60,316 bases of DNA from a virus. Taxonomy: Duplodnaviria; Caudoviricetes. A program made the position numbers and the translations under genes. The notes beneath the pieces are model-generated. The model ran no database searches, had not been told where the DNA came from, and worked only from the letters and a program-made list of their open reading frames with translations. Shown piece after piece: positions 22,016-58,436 of this stretch; position 1 is the stretch's first letter, and every line of letters starts with the position of its first letter. Location of the stretch: IMG/VR virus record IMGVR_UViG_3300018080_000195, positions 1-60,316 of that record. One strand, 5' to 3'.

Positions 22016-22696
22016 CTATCGGATATAGGCGTACTGTCCAATGGTAGACGCACTAATGTCCGTCTGAGCATTGGAGTCAAGGTTCAACAGCATACCAGCG
22101 TACAGAACACAGTTGCCAATGATCAGCGTTGCTACAGCACCCTTGGAGTTGAGTCCGGTTCCTGTGTCCACAGACTTCTCAAGGATGCCTACGGCAGTAA
22201 CGGAGCCTTCCAGACAAGCATAAGCAAACTTCGCAGTCGTGAAAGTGTCTCCTGTTGCGGTCGTAAACGTAATCACAGCATAGCTTGTGTACGTGGTCCT
22301 GTCGATAGCCGTTATGGCTCCTCCATTGTCCAAGTTCACTTCTCCATCACTGTCGATGATCAGGATGTCATCTCCTACTGCAAATCTGTAGGAGTCCGGG
22401 ATCGTCACGTTGCACGTTGCTTGTCCAGACGTTTGATCAGCGACAAGATAGGAGCGTCCTGGCGCATTCTCCGTTCCAAGGATTGAAGCTGTTGGATCGT
22501 AGGGAACGAAGTTGCCTGCCGTGGTTGCAGACGTGTTCCGGGACAGAACGGTCCCCATCTTGAGGACCCCGAATCCGGGAGCGATAGTGATCGGAATCTT
22601 CAACGCAGCATCCGGATCGCTGTAGTACAGCTTTTTGTAGTCTTCCTGGGTTCCACGAATGATGTTAGGAATATCCTGGGCCATATCGGTTTTCAC
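22016..22696 (-). CDS. head decoration protein (lambda gpD-like) with inserted domain
   Basis: ITIAPGFGVLKMGTVLS...VPYDP...AVGILEKSVDT...ATLIIG; sits between scaffold and MCP. Confidence 0.8.
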   Translation of the reverse strand: MKTDMAQDIPNIIRGTQEDYKKLYYSDPDAALKIPITIAPGFGVLKMGTVLSRNTSATTAGNFVPYDPTASILGTENAPGRSYLVADQTSGQATCNVTIPDSYRFAVGDDILIIDSDGEVNLDNGGAITAIDRTTYTSYAVITFTTATGDTFTTAKFAYACLEGSVTAVGILEKSVDTGTGLNSKGAVATLIIGNCVLYAGMLLNLDSNAQTDISASTIGQYAYIR

Positions 22697-31734: not shown

Positions 31735-31995
31735 TGAGTCTGAAGAATACTCAGTCAATTGCTTTCCGAGTCAATTAAATTCTTGACTGAGTATTCAAAG
31801 GACTTATTGACTATCGAGTCAAGTTATTGCTCATTCACTGAGTCAAAACTTGACTATCGAGTCAAAGTCTTTCTTTATTAGTCAGTCAATTCGCTTGCTA
31901 TCGAGTCAAGTCGAAGTCTGAGTCAATATTCGTTCTATCAGTCGAGACGTGACTCAAGTAAAACAAAGCGACTCAGAACTATAACATGAGTCAGA
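31735..31995. repeat. GAGTCA(A) motif cluster with TTGACT-ATCG-AGTCAA palindromic boxes
   Basis: TTGACTATCGAGTCAA at 31807-31822 and 31850-31865, variant at 31895-31909; 14-bp inverted repeat 31745-31758 / 31783-31796. Confidence 0.8.
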
Positions 31996-43678: not shown

Positions 43679-43838
43679 TTTAGCTGAGTGATCCGGCTAA
43701 GTCGCATTCGTAGGCTCAATCGGATTTTCTGGGCCACTCAGAGGTACATGGGAGGCACGGATGCGGGTCACGCGGCATACACGTAAACCGATACGTCGCC
43801 ATCCGGCGATGTGGGTACCAATGGAGGAAAAACGCACC

Positions 43839-44531
43839 ATGAATGAATTTAGCGTAATCGTTGGCGACTGTAGGGAAAAAATGTCTGAGGTCGGCACGGT
43901 TGACTACATATTCACCGGGCCACCGGACTTCGATGAAGTAGGACTCAATCCAAAGAGCACGAAGGACTACATAGCATATTATGCACTGCTCAAGAGAGCA
44001 TTCGATGAGATGGTCCATGTCACTCCTGTTATCACTGTCGCTATCACAGACAGGAAGTGCGATGGGGAGATCATCCCTAAACACGCAATCGTACAAGATT
44101 TACTCCGAACACATGGATGGAGATGCATATCACACAAGATCTGGAGCAAGTCGATGAAACGTAACTTGTACCGTCTTACATACACACACATCATGTCCTT
44201 TGCAAAGGGAACAGTGAAGCAGAACCACCCCAACGTGTATGAGATAGACGTTCTCCATGCAAAGGAACAGAAGTGGCAAGGATACTCCTACGGGATCAAT
44301 GAGGAGGTCGTCTGGCCCTTCATCCTCAACTTCACGAATGAAGGAGACACTGTGCTCGATCCGTTCCTTGGATCTGGCACTACTGCGGTCGTGTGCTTGC
44401 AGAACAATAGGAACTGCATCGGCATCGAGATCTGCTCAGTCACAGCAGAGATAGCACAAAAGCGGGTCTCCTCTCAAGGACGGATTCCAAGAGCGAGAAA
44501 ATTTTTCGAAGAGCGAGAAAATTTTGATTAG
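43839..44531 (+). CDS. N4/N6 DNA methyltransferase-like (beta order), atypical motif IV
   Basis: VDYIFTGPPDF ... VLDPFLGSGTT ... IGIEI. Confidence 0.85.
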   Translation: MNEFSVIVGDCREKMSEVGTVDYIFTGPPDFDEVGLNPKSTKDYIAYYALLKRAFDEMVHVTPVITVAITDRKCDGEIIPKHAIVQDLLRTHGWRCISHKIWSKSMKRNLYRLTYTHIMSFAKGTVKQNHPNVYEIDVLHAKEQKWQGYSYGINEEVVWPFILNFTNEGDTVLDPFLGSGTTAVVCLQNNRNCIGIEICSVTAEIAQKRVSSQGRIPRARKFFEERENFD

Positions 44532-46759: not shown

Positions 46760-47047
46760 ATGGAAAGACGAATCTTCAAGTACAAGTTAATGGCATCTTC
46801 TCTAATCTTCGTAAACCCAACAATTGTCGAACTGGAAATACCAGAGTTTGCAACATTTTTAAGTGTACAGATGCAAGACAACTCCCTTGTGGTGTGGGCA
46901 TCTGTACTCCCAGAAGAAAAGTATGTAAAAAGAATATTTCACATTGTCGGAACGGGAGGAGCAGAGCCGGAAAGACCATTCTTTTACCTCGGAACCGCGC
47001 AGGATCACAACCTCGTTTATCATGTATTCTATGAATGGGAAAAGTAA
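46760..47047 (+). CDS. hypothetical phage protein
   Basis: IFKYKL...LSVQMQ...VWA.V...FHIVGTG...YLGTAQ...LVYHVF. Confidence 0.75.
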   Translation: MERRIFKYKLMASSLIFVNPTIVELEIPEFATFLSVQMQDNSLVVWASVLPEEKYVKRIFHIVGTGGAEPERPFFYLGTAQDHNLVYHVFYEWEK

Positions 47048-47058
47048 GGAGACTGGAA

Positions 47059-47253
47059 ATGCATCTCGTATTGAAGCGGCAAGACACTCCTGGCAGACCC
47101 GCGCTGTGTCCAGTATGTAAAGTACGGATAGCGAAGAGCGAACTCCGACTGGAGACTCACTTGTACGGTGAGCAGAGCAGGCAGTTCCACCTCTCATGTG
47201 CCAAGATTCTTGCAGCAAAGATCATCAATCTTGTGGAGACGGAAAGGAGGTGA
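47059..47253 (+). CDS. PARP-type zinc-finger-like small protein
   Basis: CPVCKVRIAKSELRL...FHLSC. Confidence 0.6.
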   Translation: MHLVLKRQDTPGRPALCPVCKVRIAKSELRLETHLYGEQSRQFHLSCAKILAAKIINLVETERR

Positions 47254-47255
47254 GC

Positions 47256-47477
47256 ATGGGGAGAATCAAAGACTGGGTAAAAAGGAAGGAGGACACGATG
47301 AAGCCAAGAAGCAAGGAAGAACTCAGATCCAAGGACGTGGCACACATCCTCGACATCTCTCCGGATGACGTGATCGACATCGCCCGGAGAGGCCATCTCA
47401 AAGGACGCAAAGACGGACGCTTCTGGAGATTCACGCTCAAGGACGTGAGACAGTATCAGAAGCAGTTCGGGGACTAG
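47256..47477 (+). CDS. excisionase-like HTH (HTH_17 / MerR-type) protein
   Basis: LRSKDVAHILDIS...RRGHLKGRKDGRFWRF; alternative start at 47298. Confidence 0.85.
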   Translation: MGRIKDWVKRKEDTMKPRSKEELRSKDVAHILDISPDDVIDIARRGHLKGRKDGRFWRFTLKDVRQYQKQFGD

Positions 47478-47515
47478 CAGCACGATACTACTTCGGAGGA
47501 AGGAGGTGATATCCA

Positions 47516-47614
47516 GTGAGCCAAAGGGCAGCCCTGGTGCTTACGACTATGTTCCTGATCGTGACGGCACTACTTACGTTCCGCGGCGTAACTATAGGTA
47601 ACGCGGGTGGGTAA
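47516..47614 (+). CDS. 32-aa hydrophobic peptide
   Basis: AGGAGGTG RBS; GTG start; MSQRAALVLTTMFLIVTALLTFRGVTIGNAGG. Confidence 0.6.
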   Translation: MSQRAALVLTTMFLIVTALLTFRGVTIGNAGG

Positions 47615-47634
47615 GTAAGTAAGGAGGGAGTCGT

Positions 47635-47810
47635 TACCTAACTTAATCTGACCAAACACGATACGACGAAACGAAATAGAATAGGAAGGAGGACATCACT
47701 CAACTGGATTGGATCTAACTTTATCCAACTTCACCGGACGGGACAAGAATTTCTCCACTATACATGACGATGCCTAATTAGACAATACAGTACAATACGA
47801 AACAACATGG
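47635..47810 (+). repeat. pentamer-periodic (NAYNN) array A, three units
   Basis: 47635-47684 (10 pentamers), 47692-47746 (11), 47756-47810 (11); 31 of 32 have A then C/T at positions 2-3. Confidence 0.9.
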
Positions 47811-47826
47811 AAAAGGGAGAAGAACA

Positions 47827-48474
47827 ATGCAAGGAATCGCTAAATGCCGATACAATACGAATGTACTTGGAACAGCTCCAGCGAAAGGCTATACCCAAAT
47901 TCTTCTCGACTATATCGAAGGAAGAATGGACAAGGAGTTCCTAACATTCGCACAGCAAGCGGCAAAAAAGAATCAAACGATTGAGAAAGTGGCAACGGAC
48001 ATCCTCAGTCTATTTCACAGAGACAATGACGGCAATATTGTCGTCGGAAGCTGGATGATGAAACGCTGTCTGATCGACACAGGAATGATTTATTTCAAGT
48101 CGAAAGAGCACAAGGAACATCCAATCAAGAAAGTCATTCCTTATCTCGTTCAAGTCGTTGAGCCGTACTACATCAAACTCACAAATGGAAATGGAGAAGC
48201 GATACGGGAGCCCATAGGAGTAGACACATACGCGGTAAACTCCAAAGGTCGGAACTTCTTCAAAGCATATGAGTATCTTCCACCAGGAACGGAGTTTGAG
48301 TTTGAGTTCCATGTAGACGACGAAGTTCTCACGAAAGAAGTCTGTGAATGGTGGGTCCACAAAGCCGGAGTGGTCGGAAACTACGCTTTCCGAGAAAGAT
48401 TCGGAAAATTCGACATTCTCAAACTAGAGATAAGCGGTGGAGAGAAGGAAGAAGAGACTCAAGAAGCCGCTTAA
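47827..48474 (+). CDS. stand-alone RAMP / Cas7-like protein
   Basis: NVLGTAP; FHRDNDGNIVVGSWMMKRCL; YEYLPPGTEFEFEF; Gly-containing C-terminal loop AGVVGNYAFRERFGKFDI. The motif order matches group 7 RAMPs. Confidence 0.7.
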   Translation: MQGIAKCRYNTNVLGTAPAKGYTQILLDYIEGRMDKEFLTFAQQAAKKNQTIEKVATDILSLFHRDNDGNIVVGSWMMKRCLIDTGMIYFKSKEHKEHPIKKVIPYLVQVVEPYYIKLTNGNGEAIREPIGVDTYAVNSKGRNFFKAYEYLPPGTEFEFEFHVDDEVLTKEVCEWWVHKAGVVGNYAFRERFGKFDILKLEISGGEKEEETQEAA

Positions 48475-48619
48475 ATCTAATTGTATTGAACGCAACGAGA
48501 CGAGACTCGATGCCACACCATGACAATACCCTACGCTGCCCTACTCGAAAATACGGAACGGTACGTGACAACAATACCCAACGAAACAAGACGAGTCGTG
48601 ACAGCATCTAACAAAACAG
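48474..48619 (+). repeat. pentamer-periodic (NAYNN) array B, three units separated by CAATACCC
   Basis: 48474-48523 (10), 48532-48571 (8), 48580-48619 (8); linker CAATACCC at 48524-48531 and 48572-48579. Confidence 0.9.
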
Positions 48620-48634
48620 AGAAGGAGAAAAAAC

Positions 48635-48913
48635 ATGGAAGAAATCAAAGTCGAAAAAGTAATGAATCGAAAGAAGATTGCAGACGCAATCCACGGCTCC
48701 ATCGACGCAGGACTCAAGCTTCTCGACAAAGAAGAAGTCAGCAGAGAAGACATGCTTAGGGTCAACGTCATGCGGGCCCTCGCAACGAACATCAATGCAG
48801 GAGTAGCAATGATTCAACAGGAAACGAGTCAGGAAAGACTGACTCTTGTTCAAGAGAGAATGAAACAGTTAGGGTATCCTGTCGCCGCACAAATAGGAGG
48901 AAAGACGGAGTAA
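48635..48913 (+). CDS. 92-aa helical hypothetical protein between arrays B and C
   Basis: AAGGAG RBS; predicted all-helical. Confidence 0.75.
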   Translation: MEEIKVEKVMNRKKIADAIHGSIDAGLKLLDKEEVSREDMLRVNVMRALATNINAGVAMIQQETSQERLTLVQERMKQLGYPVAAQIGGKTE

Positions 48914-48914
48914 G

Positions 48915-49193
48915 TACAGCACCACTGGACGTAACGAAACACCACCTGACAGAGTAGGACCATACCTTACGTTACTTCATATCTTTGCCTGATTCTGATG
49001 AACTGTACTCGACACAGCACCAGACATCTCCATGCGGTATATAACGGTACCCTAGTAGCATCAAACCATTACGCTACAATACAGTATTTAACCTAACATA
49101 ACAGTACTCGAATTAGTCAGCGGTACGGTACAATACTATACATTACAACACAGTACAAGATAAAATTCTACGGTACAAGACGATACGCTACTT
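48915..49193 (+). repeat. pentamer-periodic (NAYNN) array C
   Basis: 48928-48982 (10 of 11), a degenerate middle, 49070-49109 (8 of 8), 49124-49193 (14 of 14). Confidence 0.9.
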
Positions 49194-49202
49194 GGCCCTA
49201 TT

Positions 49203-50126
49203 ATGAACCTCCATCTCTTCGACATCTGTAAGTATCTTGACTCAGTAGGGGTCCCATACTCCACGGAGAGCAAGCACACAACGGACGATTGGATCAACTT
49301 ACAGTGTCCGTTCTGCCCAGGAGGGGACCCCTCCGATCATCTTGGAATTCATCTCGACAAGAAGAGCATGAACTGTTGGAGATGTGGAACGACCGGAACA
49401 GCAATCAAGCTGATCATGAAGCTTGAGAGAATTGGACTACAGCAAGCGTTAGCAAAAATTGCTAGTCAGACATCGCACAGAAAGGACATAACGCAAAAAT
49501 GGAGCACTCTCGTAAGCGAGAGACGTATTTCCTACATGAGCATCGAGCTTCCAAAGGAGTCTCAGAACACTCTGCTCGACGCTCATCGCAGTTTTCTCGA
49601 AGAGAGACGATTCGATCCAGACCGCATATTCTCCAAGTATGATCTCCGATGCGTCCAACATTCCGTCAAGTGGAAGCACAGACTGATTATCCCGATCAAG
49701 AGACATAGCAAACTTGTAAGCTGGACTAGCAGAGACGTGACTGGAGAATCACATCTCAAGTACAAGACTGCTTCGAATGAGGAGAGCATCGTTCCGGCAA
49801 AGGAGACACTCTACAACTTGGACAGCGTAAAGGACACGGTGATCATCACGGAAGGACCGCTTGACGTATGGAGAATAGGAGACGGAGCAGTCTGCACTTA
49901 CGGCACACAGTACACGAAGACCCAGCTTCTATTGCTCTCAAAGATGAGGAGAGCGTTCGTACTTTTCGACTCAGACGCGGAAAATCCGGCAAAAAATTTA
50001 GGCGCGGATTTGGGATTGTTCGTGAATCAAACCGAGATTTTGTTTTTAGAACAAGGAGATCCTGCGGACATGTCGGAGGATGATGTCCATCATCTCCGGA
50101 GAGAAATCTTCGGAAAGATTTTTTAA
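49203..50126 (+). CDS. DNA primase (Zn finger plus TOPRIM)
   Basis: CPFC...H...NCWRCG; RLIIPI; IITEGPLD; FDSDA; DPAD. Confidence 0.92.
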   Translation: MNLHLFDICKYLDSVGVPYSTESKHTTDDWINLQCPFCPGGDPSDHLGIHLDKKSMNCWRCGTTGTAIKLIMKLERIGLQQALAKIASQTSHRKDITQKWSTLVSERRISYMSIELPKESQNTLLDAHRSFLEERRFDPDRIFSKYDLRCVQHSVKWKHRLIIPIKRHSKLVSWTSRDVTGESHLKYKTASNEESIVPAKETLYNLDSVKDTVIITEGPLDVWRIGDGAVCTYGTQYTKTQLLLLSKMRRAFVLFDSDAENPAKNLGADLGLFVNQTEILFLEQGDPADMSEDDVHHLRREIFGKIF

Positions 50127-53151: not shown

Positions 53152-53727
53152 ATGAAGCCGATTGATGAAATCAACATGGACAAACTGATCGAGTGCTGCA
53201 AGCAAGTCAACGAGGTATCCGATGACAAGATAGAAGTCGTTGGGACCTCCACTCCGGACTTGATCAAAGCATTCACACTGCGCCTTGAGAGCATGACGGA
53301 TGAGCAGCAGGACAAGGTGCAGGAAGCCGTCGCGTTCTACAACGATCTGTACGCTGACGAGCAAGTGACAGATCCTCCACCTCCTCCTCCGGACGAAAAG
53401 AAGGAAGAGAAACAGAAGAGTGATCCTGTGAAGAGGAACGTAGCGACTACGAAGAAGAAGAAGGAGAAACCCGCAGCGAAGAAGAAGAAGAAGGAGAAAG
53501 AGCCCGCAGAGAAGAAACCCCCGAAAGAGAAGGACGAGTTCGGCTACACTGTCGGAACGCTGAACAACAAGTTCATGCAAGCGATCAAGCAGAAGCCGAT
53601 GACGATGAAGGAAGTCAAGGACGAAGCGTGGAACGAGAAGAGCGTCACGTTCTACGAGATCTTCAAGAAGGAGCGGGTAGCCGGAAGAGCGTTCAAGGAC
53701 AAAGATGGAAAGATGTCTGTGCGATGA
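53152..53727 (+). CDS. Lys-rich FG...WN...TxY family protein (paralog 3)
   Basis: KDEFGYTVGT...KPMTMKEVKDEAWNEKSVTFYE; TTGACA at 53077-53082 upstream. Confidence 0.75.
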   Translation: MKPIDEINMDKLIECCKQVNEVSDDKIEVVGTSTPDLIKAFTLRLESMTDEQQDKVQEAVAFYNDLYADEQVTDPPPPPPDEKKEEKQKSDPVKRNVATTKKKKEKPAAKKKKKEKEPAEKKPPKEKDEFGYTVGTLNNKFMQAIKQKPMTMKEVKDEAWNEKSVTFYEIFKKERVAGRAFKDKDGKMSVR

Positions 53728-54722
53728 TCGAGACGAAGGAGTACCCTCCGAGAGAGTATCTGTTTCCAGAGGAAAAGGAAATAGACGAGACAGCTAAGGG
53801 GTTGACCTTCGACGCACTGAAGAAGAGTCATGATCGTAGAAGCAATCTCATAGACAAACTCGGCTACGTTCCTACTTCCATCTTCAAGCGAGACAGCAAG
53901 GAACAATTGTATCTCACACAAGATACGTTCATTGAAGAGAGAGGGGGTGGTTACGAGAAGCACAACAAGGAAATGAAGGGGGACCTTCGCAGCTTGGACA
54001 GAGACAAAAACGAATTTCTGCTTGTCAATACTGGATTGCGGATACAAGGCCGGAAAGGGTACTTATCACGTTTTCCTCAGAATGTCGGACGCATCCTGAT
54101 TGAAGTCCATTGTCCAGAGCAAGGAACGATCTACGATCCATTCGCAGGTCACAACAGCAGGATGCAGTTAGCGTATCGTTGCAAACGCAACTACATCGGA
54201 GTGGACATCTGCGCTGAGTACATGAAACTCAATCGGGAACTCCGACAGAAACTCCTCGAAAGACCGGTCTTCGAAGGAGAGTACAAGCCGACACTTGAGT
54301 TGATCGAAGGAAGTTCCGCGAAAGTGGATCTTCCAGACAACTGGGCAGACTTTACGATCACATCCCCACCTTACTGGGATCTGGAGTATTACGGACCAGA
54401 GGAAGAGCAACTTGGATTGGACAAAACGTATGAGGAATTCCTTGAAGCTTTGTATCCGCATATTGTTGAGAACGAGAGAGTGCTGAAGCCCGGAGCGTTC
54501 TGCATCTGGTGCATCAATGACTTCCGGAAGGACAAGAAGTATCACCCGTACCACATAGACTTGTACAAGCTGTTCGAAGTCGCAGGATTCGAAGCGTTCA
54601 ACATCTACATCATTGATCTCGTCAGCGTTGTGCAAGCGTCCTTTGTGCGGGACATAGTGGATCACAAAATCATTCCAAAACAACACGAATATGTACTCGT
54701 ATTCCGAAAGAGAGGAGTGTGA
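53724..54722 (+). CDS. N4/N6 DNA methyltransferase
   Basis: IYDPFAG, YIGVDI, TSPPYWDLEYY, HEYVLVFRK. Confidence 0.9.
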   Translation: MIETKEYPPREYLFPEEKEIDETAKGLTFDALKKSHDRRSNLIDKLGYVPTSIFKRDSKEQLYLTQDTFIEERGGGYEKHNKEMKGDLRSLDRDKNEFLLVNTGLRIQGRKGYLSRFPQNVGRILIEVHCPEQGTIYDPFAGHNSRMQLAYRCKRNYIGVDICAEYMKLNRELRQKLLERPVFEGEYKPTLELIEGSSAKVDLPDNWADFTITSPPYWDLEYYGPEEEQLGLDKTYEEFLEALYPHIVENERVLKPGAFCIWCINDFRKDKKYHPYHIDLYKLFEVAGFEAFNIYIIDLVSVVQASFVRDIVDHKIIPKQHEYVLVFRKRGV

Positions 54723-55820: not shown

Positions 55821-58436
55821 ATGAAAGGGTTCTTCTCAAGAGAAGAGATCGAACAGGACTTCGAGATACAGCAACTAGAAGATCCGCTTCCTGCTTGCAA
55901 AAAGTGTGGAATGCATGTCGGGTGTATGCACCCTAAGACAGAGTATACAGGAGACGGAAGGAAGAAGTGTCTCATCGTCGCGGAAGCGATGGGCCCTGAT
56001 GAAGACGAAGTAGGAAAGCAGTTAGTCGGACAAGTAGGACAGTGGTTCCGAGACTCTCTCTCCGACTATGATCTGGACTTGGATCGGGACTTCTGGAAGA
56101 TCAACGCTGTCAACTGCTTTCCTCACGACAAGGACAGACACGTCCGGAGTCCAACAAGAGCGGAAGTTGAATGCTGTCGTCCTCTAGTGGAGAAAGCAAT
56201 CCGTGAGACAAATCCTGAGTTCATCTGGATATTCGGCAACTCCGCCCTCGAATCCTTCTTCATGAAGGACTTCTCCAGACTCAAGATCACACGGTGGAGG
56301 AACACCTGCATTCCGGATCAGAAGTACAATGCTTGGATTCTTCCAATGTTTCATCCAAGCTACATCACTAGGAATCCGAACGACGACAATCTCCTCGCTT
56401 GCTTCGACTGGGACTTGAAGTATGCCGTCTCCTGTCTTAACAAGGAGCGTCCTCCAGTCATCAAGCCAAGAGAGCACGTTGTCTGTCTGACTGACCCTGT
56501 TGATGTTGTCACGCAACTTGAGGACATTCTGTCACGCGAGCCAGGATTTGTAGTCATTGACTACGAGACAAGCGGACTGAAACCACAAGCACCTGGACAC
56601 AAGATCGCTACAGTTGCAATCATGGAGGAAGGAAGCAGTGCAGCATACAGCTTTCCATTCCAGTACAGCGATCACTTCAATGTGCCAGAGCGTCTAGTTA
56701 TCAAGTCTTCAATGAGACAGATCCTCCGTCACAAGAAGATAGGAAAAGTCGCACACAACATGAAGTTCGAACACGCATGGGGTGAAAAGATCTTCGGAGT
56801 CTCCACGGAGAACTGGAAATGGGACACAATGCTCTGTGCTCACATACTGGACACGAGAAAAGGATTCTCTGGCCTGAAGTTTCAGAGTTATGTCAACTTT
56901 GGAATCCGTCCATACGACAAGCACATCAAGCAGTACTTGAAGGACACAGGATCAGGATTCAATAAGATAGACAACGCTCCACTGGACTCTCTTCTCCTGT
57001 ACGGTGGAATGGATGTAGTGCTAACCAGAATGCTGTACAGGAAACAGCTTGATCAGTTCACACTGACGGAAGGACTGAACGAGCGGAACAAGTTAGCGAA
57101 AGCTTACAGGTTTTTCCATGAAGGAAACCTTGCGCTTGCAGACGTACAGCGCAACGGGATCCCGATGGACGAAGAGTACTACGCAGAAAAGGACATGGAA
57201 CTAGCGGATAAAATAGACGACTTGTACGAGAAGTTAGCAGAGTCCAAGGAAGCAGAGCAGTTCAAGGAAGAGTTCGGCAGAGAGATCAACCTGAAAGGAA
57301 AAAGTTCGCAGAAGGATCTGACGAAACTGCTGACGGAAGTGCTAGATCTTGAGATGGAAAGGACGCTGAAGAATAACATAGTGACAGATGAGAAAGCACT
57401 GACTCGGCTAAACATTCCGTTCACGAATCAACTCCTGAAGCTTCGGAAGCTGGAGAAGATCCACGGCACATACTTCGCTGAGTTCAAGCGTGAGATGTGT
57501 GACGGACGGATGTTCCCGTTCTTTGATCTTGTGATTCCTAGATCACTCCGGTCGAGCAGTTCAAAGCCGAACTTCCAGAACATACCGAACAGAGAGGAGG
57601 AAGCAAAGAAGCTCTGTCGGAGTGGAATCATTCCATCCAAAGGAAATCAGATCCTAGAGAGCGACTTCAAAGGAATCGAAGTGTCTATTGCCGCGTGTTA
57701 CACACAGGACCCAACTCTTGTGGAGCACGTCACGGACCCGAACAACGACATGCATAGAGACTGCGCTGCTGATGTCTGGCTCCTAGACACAGATCAAGTC
57801 ACAAGTGAGATCCGTTTCTATGCTAAGAACTGTTGGGTCTTCCCGCAATTCTATGGATCGTACTTTGGAAACTGCGCGGAGGACTTGTGGGAGTCCGTCA
57901 TCGAGCAGGACTTGAAAGCTGCGAATGGAGAGTTCGTAGCTGATCACATACAGGATCAAGGAATCGACTCCTTGGACACGTTCAAGGAGCATTGTCAGGA
58001 CGTTGAGCGTGTTTTCTGGAACAGTCGCTTTCAAGTCTACAAGCAGTGGAAGGATAGGATACAGAGAGAGTTCAGGAAGAGGGGGTACTTCGAGACTTAC
58101 TTTGGATTCCGCTTTCACGGCTATCTGACGTACAATCAACTCTGTAATTACCCGATCCAAGGAACAGCATTCCATTGTCTGCTGTGGACTCTGATCGAAC
58201 TCCAAGACTGGGTAAAGCGAGAGAAGCTGCGCTCTCGGATCATCGGACAGATTCATGACTCCATAGTGTGGGACCTCAATCCGGAGGAGAGAGATACTGT
58301 CATCGAAAAGACAATCCAGTACGGAACAGTGGACATCGTAAGTGCTCACCCGTGGATCAATGTTCCACTTGAGATCGACTTCGAGATCACTCCTGTAGAC
58401 GGATCATGGTACGAGAAGGAGGAGATGCAAGTATGA
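55821..58436 (+). CDS. family A DNA polymerase with N-terminal family 4 UDG-like domain and 3'-5' exonuclease
   Basis: CKKC...C, AEAMG.DED, NAVNCFP, FHPSY (UDG-4); DYETSG, HNMKFE (exo); SSSKPNFQNIP, SDFKGIE, DMH, FYG, NYPIQG, QIHDS (Pol A). Confidence 0.95.
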   Translation: MKGFFSREEIEQDFEIQQLEDPLPACKKCGMHVGCMHPKTEYTGDGRKKCLIVAEAMGPDEDEVGKQLVGQVGQWFRDSLSDYDLDLDRDFWKINAVNCFPHDKDRHVRSPTRAEVECCRPLVEKAIRETNPEFIWIFGNSALESFFMKDFSRLKITRWRNTCIPDQKYNAWILPMFHPSYITRNPNDDNLLACFDWDLKYAVSCLNKERPPVIKPREHVVCLTDPVDVVTQLEDILSREPGFVVIDYETSGLKPQAPGHKIATVAIMEEGSSAAYSFPFQYSDHFNVPERLVIKSSMRQILRHKKIGKVAHNMKFEHAWGEKIFGVSTENWKWDTMLCAHILDTRKGFSGLKFQSYVNFGIRPYDKHIKQYLKDTGSGFNKIDNAPLDSLLLYGGMDVVLTRMLYRKQLDQFTLTEGLNERNKLAKAYRFFHEGNLALADVQRNGIPMDEEYYAEKDMELADKIDDLYEKLAESKEAEQFKEEFGREINLKGKSSQKDLTKLLTEVLDLEMERTLKNNIVTDEKALTRLNIPFTNQLLKLRKLEKIHGTYFAEFKREMCDGRMFPFFDLVIPRSLRSSSSKPNFQNIPNREEEAKKLCRSGIIPSKGNQILESDFKGIEVSIAACYTQDPTLVEHVTDPNNDMHRDCAADVWLLDTDQVTSEIRFYAKNCWVFPQFYGSYFGNCAEDLWESVIEQDLKAANGEFVADHIQDQGIDSLDTFKEHCQDVERVFWNSRFQVYKQWKDRIQREFRKRGYFETYFGFRFHGYLTYNQLCNYPIQGTAFHCLLWTLIELQDWVKREKLRSRIIGQIHDSIVWDLNPEERDTVIEKTIQYGTVDIVSAHPWINVPLEIDFEITPVDGSWYEKEEMQV

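Follow-up and report, generated by a model that had tools for sequence, protein, structure and literature searches.

Which kind of system do pentanucleotide arrays belong to when they stand beside a small RAMP gene in a phage genome? The question was raised by a 60,316-base sequence, IMG/VR record IMGVR_UViG_3300018080_000195, the whole of which forms the window analysed here (completeness estimate, 72%; GC content, 48%). A first-pass annotation, made from the letters alone, had described three phase-shifted units of NAYNN pentamers upstream of a RAMP gene and had named no system. From the pentamer arrays, the RAMP fold and the recent literature taken together, we now match these units to the vrRNA arrays of VIPR. 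The three arrays found in the window, a 215-aa RAMP gene and a 92-aa gene very probably form a divergent phage VIPR system.

VIPR (Viral Interference Programmable Repeat) was first described in 2026 as a CRISPR-related RNA-guided DNA silencer (10.64898/2026.04.26.720920). According to the accessible text of that preprint, VIPR loci are mostly phage-borne and comprise an ancestral RAMP protein of ~20 kD (Vipr) and a single accessory gene (vap), with vrRNAs encoded in the intergenic sequence that flanks these genes. Each vrRNA holds 9-16 pentamers in which G-G-Y is joined to two variable letters (NN). These variable letters pair with dsDNA, every third target base being skipped, and competing phages and satellites are thereby silenced at the level of transcription (10.64898/2026.04.26.720920). 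The same text gives YNNGG, NNNGG, YNNNG and NNNNG as repeat motifs and describes staggered arrays with overlapping vrRNAs, tail-less arrays and other layouts. Structural work, likewise accessible in part, places one Vipr protomer on each repeat with GGY hidden, and reports that the filament can pair with ssRNA too (10.64898/2026.04.26.720927). A survey with a genomic language model reports, in its accessible text, 21 non-canonical clusters with cores including GAC/NN, CAC/NN, WGT/NN and TGH/NN, in arrays of ~10 repeats beside Vipr-like folds (10.64898/2026.10.21.760802). A further VIPR preprint has been posted (bioRxiv 10.64898/2026.10.15.759431).

Three intergenic arrays of NAYNN pentamers lie on one strand

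Array A consists of three units, and the 31 of 32 pentamers that the first-pass annotation had counted as NAYNN were recovered both by direct reading and by an automatic phase-run caller. The claim that its two short linkers reset the phase was also confirmed, with the shifts given in Table 1. The signal was not confined to this array, as two further intergenic arrays were present downstream, B (48474-48619) and C (48923-49203). Neighbouring units are joined by linkers of 7-14 nt or by a 2-nt overlap; the latter holds for array B, where successive runs are staggered and share 2 nt, with 10/10, 8/10 and 9/10 pentamers fitting. Over the nine units, NAYNN was found in 92 of 98 pentamers (B, 27/30; C, 34/36).

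Table 1. Coordinates of the arrays and genes of the cassette in the window
Feature	Position	Strand	Description
Array A unit 1	47635..47684	+	10 pentamers, 10/10 NAYNN; candidate vrRNA guide tract
Array A linker 1	47685..47691	+	7 nt, phase shift +2
Array A unit 2	47692..47746	+	11 pentamers, 11/11 NAYNN
Array A linker 2	47747..47755	+	9 nt, phase shift +4
Array A unit 3	47756..47810	+	11 pentamers, 10/11 NAYNN; the exception is the fourth pentamer
vipr-like gene	47827..48474	+	215 aa, RAMP (Cas7/Csm3-like) fold
Array B	48474..48619	+	3 runs of 10 pentamers: 48474-48523, 48522-48571, 48570-48619
92-aa gene	48635..48913	+	candidate accessory (vap-like) gene, conserved in relatives
Array C unit 1	48923..48982	+	12 pentamers, 11/12 NAYNN
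Array C inner spacer	48983..49069	+	87 nt, non-periodic, no Rfam match
Array C unit 2	49070..49109	+	8 pentamers, 8/8 NAYNN
Array C unit 3	49124..49203	+	16 pentamers in a single phase, 15/16 NAYNN; the first 14 (to 49193) all fit

The constraint was concentrated on two of the five letters. Letter 2 was A in 93 of the 98 pentamers and G in four, and letter 3 was a pyrimidine in 97 (C in 76, T in 21). Letter 1 took all four bases (A 28, C 11, G 25, T 34), as did letters 4 and 5, and the pentamers were nearly all different.

The arrays stood out clearly from the base composition of the phage, in which the AY dinucleotide has a background of 0.123 on the plus strand. Positions at which at least eight of ten successive 5-nt steps carried AY numbered 42 on the plus strand and 0 on the minus strand, compared with a mean of 0.06 and a maximum of 2 in 100 dinucleotide-preserving shuffles. 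All ten steps carried AY at nine positions and in none of the 100 shuffles; no shuffle reached even nine of ten. On the minus strand, not a single position was found at a threshold of at least seven of ten. When both strands of all 60,316 bases were scanned at eight of ten or more, only four clusters appeared, all on the plus strand: 47626-47817, 48465-48626, 48919-48989 and 49061-49210.

A period of five would also be expected of a decayed pentanucleotide microsatellite, and Tandem Repeats Finder did report a TACAA-like piece of period 5 at 49129-49158. This weak piece, with 68% matches, was its only signal in the arrays, indicating that the arrays are not ordinary tandem repeats. The diversity of the pentamers and the shuffle controls also stand against a microsatellite or a chance compositional pattern, an explanation that the relatives described below refute.

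Folding of the three intergenic regions gave no RNA structure that was significant relative to shuffles (z = 0.38, -1.89 and 0.60), as expected for a single strand bound by protein. No structured 3' tail was found in these folds, and a search of 47000-49600 against Rfam returned no match at E ≤ 1. Counts from a promoter and terminator scan were not above those of shuffles. A hydrophobic 32-codon ORF with a strong Shine-Dalgarno sequence (47516-47614) stops 20 nt upstream of array A.

The arrays sit within the replication module of the phage

The minus strand to ~29.5 kb carries structural genes, including those for the terminase, head protease, a head-decoration-like protein and major head proteins. 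The plus strand from ~32 kb carries a replication module that encodes two N6/N4 methylases, an SF2 helicase, an HTH_17 protein, a DnaG-like primase, a DnaB-like helicase, a sliding clamp, a UDG-PolA fusion and a clamp loader. The arrays lie inside this module, with the SF2 helicase on one side and the DnaG-like primase and DnaB genes on the other.

Several other features of the record were noted. The two N6/N4 DNA methyltransferase genes of the early region are at 43761-44531 and 53628-54722. An 871-aa ORF at 55821-58436 joins a family A DNA polymerase to an N-terminal domain of the uracil-DNA-glycosylase superfamily and a 3'-5' exonuclease domain. A 43-bp tandem repeat (31807-31909; 2.4 copies, 77% matches) lies in an ORF-poor, low-GC (41-46%) stretch (~29.7-32.8 kb) that separates the structural module from the divergently oriented early module, and may mark a regulatory or origin region.

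We also considered a Class 1 CRISPR-Cas locus and rejected it. No regularly spaced direct repeats of the kind seen in a CRISPR array were present over the 60-kb record, and neither Cas5, Cas6, Cas10, Cas11, Cas3 nor any other cas gene was found in the window. The neighbouring genes are instead replication and methylase genes.

The 215-aa gene encodes a stand-alone RAMP protein homologous to SUSP1 Vipr

The first-pass annotation had called the gene downstream of array A a RAMP gene, and its protein does have that fold. No Pfam or PHROG family matched the 215-aa protein, and eight homologues at 45-48% identity were found in a collection of 5.8 billion proteins. A structure search against predicted viral structures gave an unnamed protein as the top match (E 2.2e-11), together with a siphovirus protein annotated as 'Cas system-associated RAMP superfamily protein' (E 6.9e-9); archaeal virus proteins were also among the best matches. 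The protein is thus a small RAMP fold, with an RRM core, a glycine-rich loop and a thumb, that stands alone outside any CRISPR-cas locus.

For direct comparison, we located the VIPR locus of Escherichia phage SUSP1 in KT454805.2, where a GGY/NN array (29236-29162), a 195-aa gene (29061-28474), a 146-aa gene and further arrays were found. A profile of the 215-aa family aligned with SUSP1 Vipr by hhalign over the last ~50 columns (probability 94.3%, E 1e-7), and BLASTP of the 215-aa protein against SUSP1 Vipr gave E 7e-5 with 26% identity over 147 residues. Confident sequence homology is limited to these C-terminal ~50 columns. The C-terminal glycine-rich loop motif R-x-R-F-G-[KR]-F is invariant in SUSP1 Vipr and the 215-aa family. 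A profile search of 1.84 billion representative proteins returned 29 at E ≤ 1e-3, indicating that the family is small. At the weak end of this list stood a protein that matches SUSP1 Vipr at 32% identity across 191 residues.

DNA and protein searches with the locus and the 215-aa protein against 50,697 GenBank phage records gave no match, nor did IMG/VR yield relatives when scanned with either the RAMP gene or the primase as a single protein. Comparison of the locus with three DNA runs showed its probable source run and, in contigs of two other metagenome runs, one from sediment and one from seawater, an identical segment of 181 nt within the RAMP gene (48005-48185); the rest of the locus was absent from both of these.

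A 92-aa helical gene accompanies the RAMP gene

The protein of the 92-aa gene was modelled as a two-helix hairpin (helices 12-30 and 37-78; pLDDT 83.4). It had no Pfam match, no fold match at E ≤ 0.001 and no similarity to vap1 of SUSP1 (probability 0.15). A homologue with 36-49% identity lay between the second and third arrays in 13 aligned loci. By a sequence comparison that covered SUSP1 vap1, the 92-aa gene is a candidate for a new type of accessory gene.

A-Y is conserved in relatives, and the N letters and whole units turn over

An alignment-based scan yielded one IMG/VR locus and 21 metagenome loci with RAMP homologues of 27-49% identity and GC contents of 32-54%. Period-5 AY arrays lay directly beside the RAMP homologue in all 22 loci (19 distinct), so that the linkage of the arrays to a RAMP gene, first noted in a single phage, proved to be general in this set. 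Wherever the contig permitted, the cassette had the same order: array, RAMP gene, array, ~90-aa helical gene, array. The genes outside the cassette varied by locus (primase, Prim-Pol, terminase, glycosyltransferase, polyvalent protein and others), which indicates that the arrays belong to the cassette rather than to the primase or a replication origin.

The identity of the pyrimidine followed base composition. In AT-rich relatives, Y was T in 85% of pentamers, whereas it was C in 76 of 97 in the window, so that only the pyrimidine character is kept. The motif was strand-specific in the window and in one relative (L003) and was seen on both strands in AT-rich relatives, because AT is self-complementary. 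Single-phase runs ranged from 7 to 34 pentamers in the relatives. The module length of 50-55 nt is therefore typical and not fixed. The earlier view of array A as discrete modules rather than a decayed microsatellite was upheld.

To compare substitution rates among the five letters, we used five relatives with 83-95% DNA identity (L015, L017, L018, L021 and L022), in hand-anchored, ungapped orthologous blocks from which unalignable or swapped stretches were excluded. Variable columns numbered 16/113 at letter 1, 1/113 at letter 2, 5/113 at letter 3 (all C<->T), 25/113 at letter 4 and 18/113 at letter 5. The AY positions therefore do not mutate as freely as the NN positions, an outcome that the first-pass annotation had named as decisive for its module reading. 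Gain, loss and swap of units with AY conserved, which it had proposed to look for, were all seen among the relatives. L011 and L012, which are 98.9% identical, differed by an indel of exactly three pentamers; L017 had additional units relative to L015; and the arrays of L015 and L021 could not be aligned, their flanking genes being 92-94% identical. Judged from these alignments, A-Y is strongly constrained, and the turnover of the N letters and of entire units resembles that of guides. In L011 (740-1158), the units are parted by conserved 13-nt linkers with a possible 3-bp stem and GNRA-type tetraloop, which are absent from the window and may serve as a processing or capping signal.

These comparisons bear on each of the explanations that dispense with guides. 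A microsatellite or compositional accident is refuted, since relatives keep A-Y down to a protein identity of 40-48% and across GC contents of 32 to 54%, and since substitutions avoid letters 2 and 3. A second explanation is that the arrays are a DNA-level replication element with sites phased by 5 bp, serving either as an origin or for the loading of primase or helicase. Their position between the SF2 helicase and the DnaG-like primase/DnaB genes fits this, as do the primase-type genes near the cassette in L007, L009 and L019. We nevertheless regard it as highly improbable: the motif is strand-specific in the window, the arrays accompany the RAMP gene into other contexts (terminase in L014, glycosyltransferase in L006), and 34 loci from phages related by terminase or polymerase had neither such long arrays nor a RAMP gene.

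A third explanation is that the arrays are cis-regulatory leaders, in which a RAMP-like or other multimeric RNA binder would coat the mRNA and control translation of the vipr-like gene, the 92-aa gene and the primase. Arrays and genes point in the same direction, and each array ends 15-16 nt before a start codon or abuts one; array A stops 16 nt upstream of the RAMP start codon, and unit 3 of array C directly adjoins that of the primase (49203). A run of 10-11 triplet-plus-two units also resembles the binding site of TRAP (trp RNA-binding attenuation protein). In relatives, however, the third array is followed by unrelated genes, among them a terminase gene, one for a TSCPD protein and uncharacterized genes, which ties it to the cassette and not to the primase gene. 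A pure binding platform would need neither turnover of the N letters nor unit swaps, and no TRAP-family protein was found among the 17 neighbouring proteins scanned. We thus consider leaders very unlikely, if slightly less so than a replication element, and retain the VIPR reading.

Residues of the predicted RNA-reading pocket differ from those of SUSP1 Vipr

In the accessible text on SUSP1 Vipr, G1 is read by H17 and D177, G2 by R138 and W178, and Y3 is read by E71, M72, R179, C173 and T175 (10.64898/2026.04.26.720927). We aligned SUSP1 Vipr with the 215-aa family by MAFFT and found H17 replaced by Y, D177 by A or S and W178 by F or Y. R138 aligned with an invariant E in the family, and R179 and M72 were kept. 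On this one alignment, the changes would fit a pocket in which letter 1 is no longer read, letter 2 has changed from G to A and the pyrimidine is retained.

Other A-containing arrays were sought in a census of IMG/VR. Stretches with 14 consecutive AY steps numbered at least 123, and 80 loci were fetched; most of these were plain microsatellites of 5, 10 or 15 nt, and about a dozen were diverse xAC/NN arrays. The diverse arrays with an A-C core included GAC/NN (L077, L053, L095), AAC/NN (L029, L081) and YAC/NN (L039, L096, L104, L106). An ORF adjoining several of them, including L077, L053, L029, L096 and L104, had the Vipr-like C-terminal glycine-rich loop, so that A-containing VIPR cores seem to form a group wider than the 215-aa family. 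The loop position was likewise without Asp at the loci with GAC/NN arrays. Loss of this Asp alone therefore cannot explain how letter 1 is read, and the rationale for a residue swap is weakened.

A more specific proposal is that the locus represents a distinct VIPR clade, with a pocket re-tuned from G-G-Y to N-A-Y, three free letters in each pentamer and the 92-aa helical protein as a new partner. We put this forward tentatively, as a possibility that we rate well below the VIPR assignment itself. If it were true, the system could provide an orthogonal scaffold-guide pair, and its target rule might be other than 'two letters, skip one'.

One candidate protospacer was found in a related phage

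For SUSP1, several units are reported to converge on one element. Within the window analysed here, unit matching gave no self-targets above shuffled-guide controls; the absence of self-targets is likewise reported for VIPR in the accessible text of 10.64898/2026.04.26.720920. Cross-targets among the related cassettes were not found either (140 guide windows against 134 kb). We then searched the 339 kb of the 34 loci whose phages are related to this one through terminase or polymerase.

In this set, unit 1 of array A matched 18 of 20 NN letters at L159:4975-5004, on an IMG/VR contig of a related phage, under the one-nucleotide skip rule only. A score of 18 was reached by none of 400 order-shuffles and none of 400 letter-shuffles of the guide. 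The site covers codons 6-15 of a head-decoration-like gene. Its counterpart in the window, at 22016-22696 (-), shares 53% identity with it, and the orthologous site there scored 13/20. Among 80 of the 218 homologues of the target gene, which were examined, a score of 18 was reached by L186 alone, which comes from the contig that carries L159, and the other 79 scored 14 or less; a homologue with 89% identity (L184) scored 13/20. The skipped base fell on codon position 1 and not on the wobble position. By our own estimate, chance would yield ~0.2 such matches over all target searches. L159:4975-5004 is thus a candidate protospacer for this unit, and we treat it as a lead, not a finding.

The same site bears on how the letters might be decoded. 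A Vipr-like filament could form on the array RNA and follow another rule or act on another target, through contiguous triplet pairing by letters 4 and 5 and the next letter 1, through an RNA target, or as a decoy. Letter 1 varies as freely as letters 4 and 5 in close relatives and uses all four bases in the window; variants with three or four free letters, YNNNG and NNNNG, appear in the accessible text of 10.64898/2026.04.26.720920, and pairing of the filament with ssRNA is reported in that of 10.64898/2026.04.26.720927. At the only candidate target, however, letter 1 of the next pentamer matched the skipped base at the level of chance (2 of 9 cases), and a free letter 1 is equally expected if it is merely unread. 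A pairing role for letter 1 was therefore not supported, and we regard another decoding rule or target as unlikely, if less so than either the leader or the replication explanation. The skip rule of the published VIPR systems was retained for the proposal below.

Proposed mechanism and implications

The steps that follow are carried over from the literature on VIPR, by analogy with SUSP1 and Pseudomonas fulva, as regards transcription and processing, the protomer number, the pairing rule and the silencing of competitors. Transcripts of the arrays would give rise to guide RNAs (vrRNAs), each ~8-14 pentamers long. One Vipr-like protomer would bind each pentamer, sequestering A2 and Y3, leaving letter 1 unread and exposing letters 4 and 5. 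The exposed letters might then pair discontinuously with dsDNA of a competing phage or satellite, one target base being skipped per repeat, and transcription of the target would be blocked.

VIPR is of interest as a minimal, PAM-free and reprogrammable form of RNA-guided DNA binding from which CRISPR may have evolved. The existence of a natural A-pyrimidine clade would imply that the 'handle' between protein and RNA can drift within an unchanged five-base architecture. Correlated changes at the guanine-reading residues might offer a testable specificity code for orthogonal Vipr/guide pairs. As a VIPR system, the locus would widen the known range by a new accessory gene type and by compact arrays that are tail-less or staggered. 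It would also mark a sediment phage lineage as a probable player in phage-against-phage conflict, with one candidate target.

Comparison with known systems

The arrays differ from Class 1 CRISPR systems in two respects. The Cas7 filaments of those systems (Csm3/Cmr4, type VII Cas7 and Csf2) follow a period of 6 nt, whereas the period here is 5 nt, and constant and variable letters occur here within each step rather than in repeat-spacer units.

TRAP sites consist of ~11 triplets, (G/U)AG, set 2-3 nt apart in unstructured RNA upstream of genes. The arrays described here share the number of triplets, the 2-nt spacing, the lack of structure and the position upstream of genes. They differ in having an A-Y motif, in being linked to a RAMP protein and in their guide-like turnover.

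Among the arrays of the language model survey, the window shares the period of 5, a non-GGY core, a repeat number of ~10 and an adjoining Vipr-like fold (10.64898/2026.10.21.760802). The cores named in its accessible text are fixed or degenerate at one position, whereas the core in the window is degenerate at two of three, with only the A fixed and the Y constrained. The motif also falls outside the GGY, NNNGG, YNNNG and NNNNG definitions in the accessible text of 10.64898/2026.04.26.720920. The N-A-Y core is thereby set apart from the cores named in the texts of these two preprints to the extent that they were accessible, and it may already be described.

The closest resemblance is to VIPR type II, as found in SUSP1 and a P. 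fulva prophage. The constant letters are N-A-Y here and G-G-Y in SUSP1, so that the Y is common and the G is missing. The pseudoknotted or otherwise structured tail of type II was not found in the window, and the candidate accessory protein, modelled as a two-helix hairpin, is unrelated to vap1. In both cases, however, the locus is phage-borne and has a single small RAMP gene with one further gene behind it, a candidate accessory gene in the window, and there is no CRISPR array, no other cas gene and no self-target. Long intergenic tandem pentamers, with ~10-12 per unit, lie both upstream and downstream of the genes, as in SUSP1 and P. fulva. As in VIPR, the constant letters are conserved and the variable letters are hypervariable among related systems.
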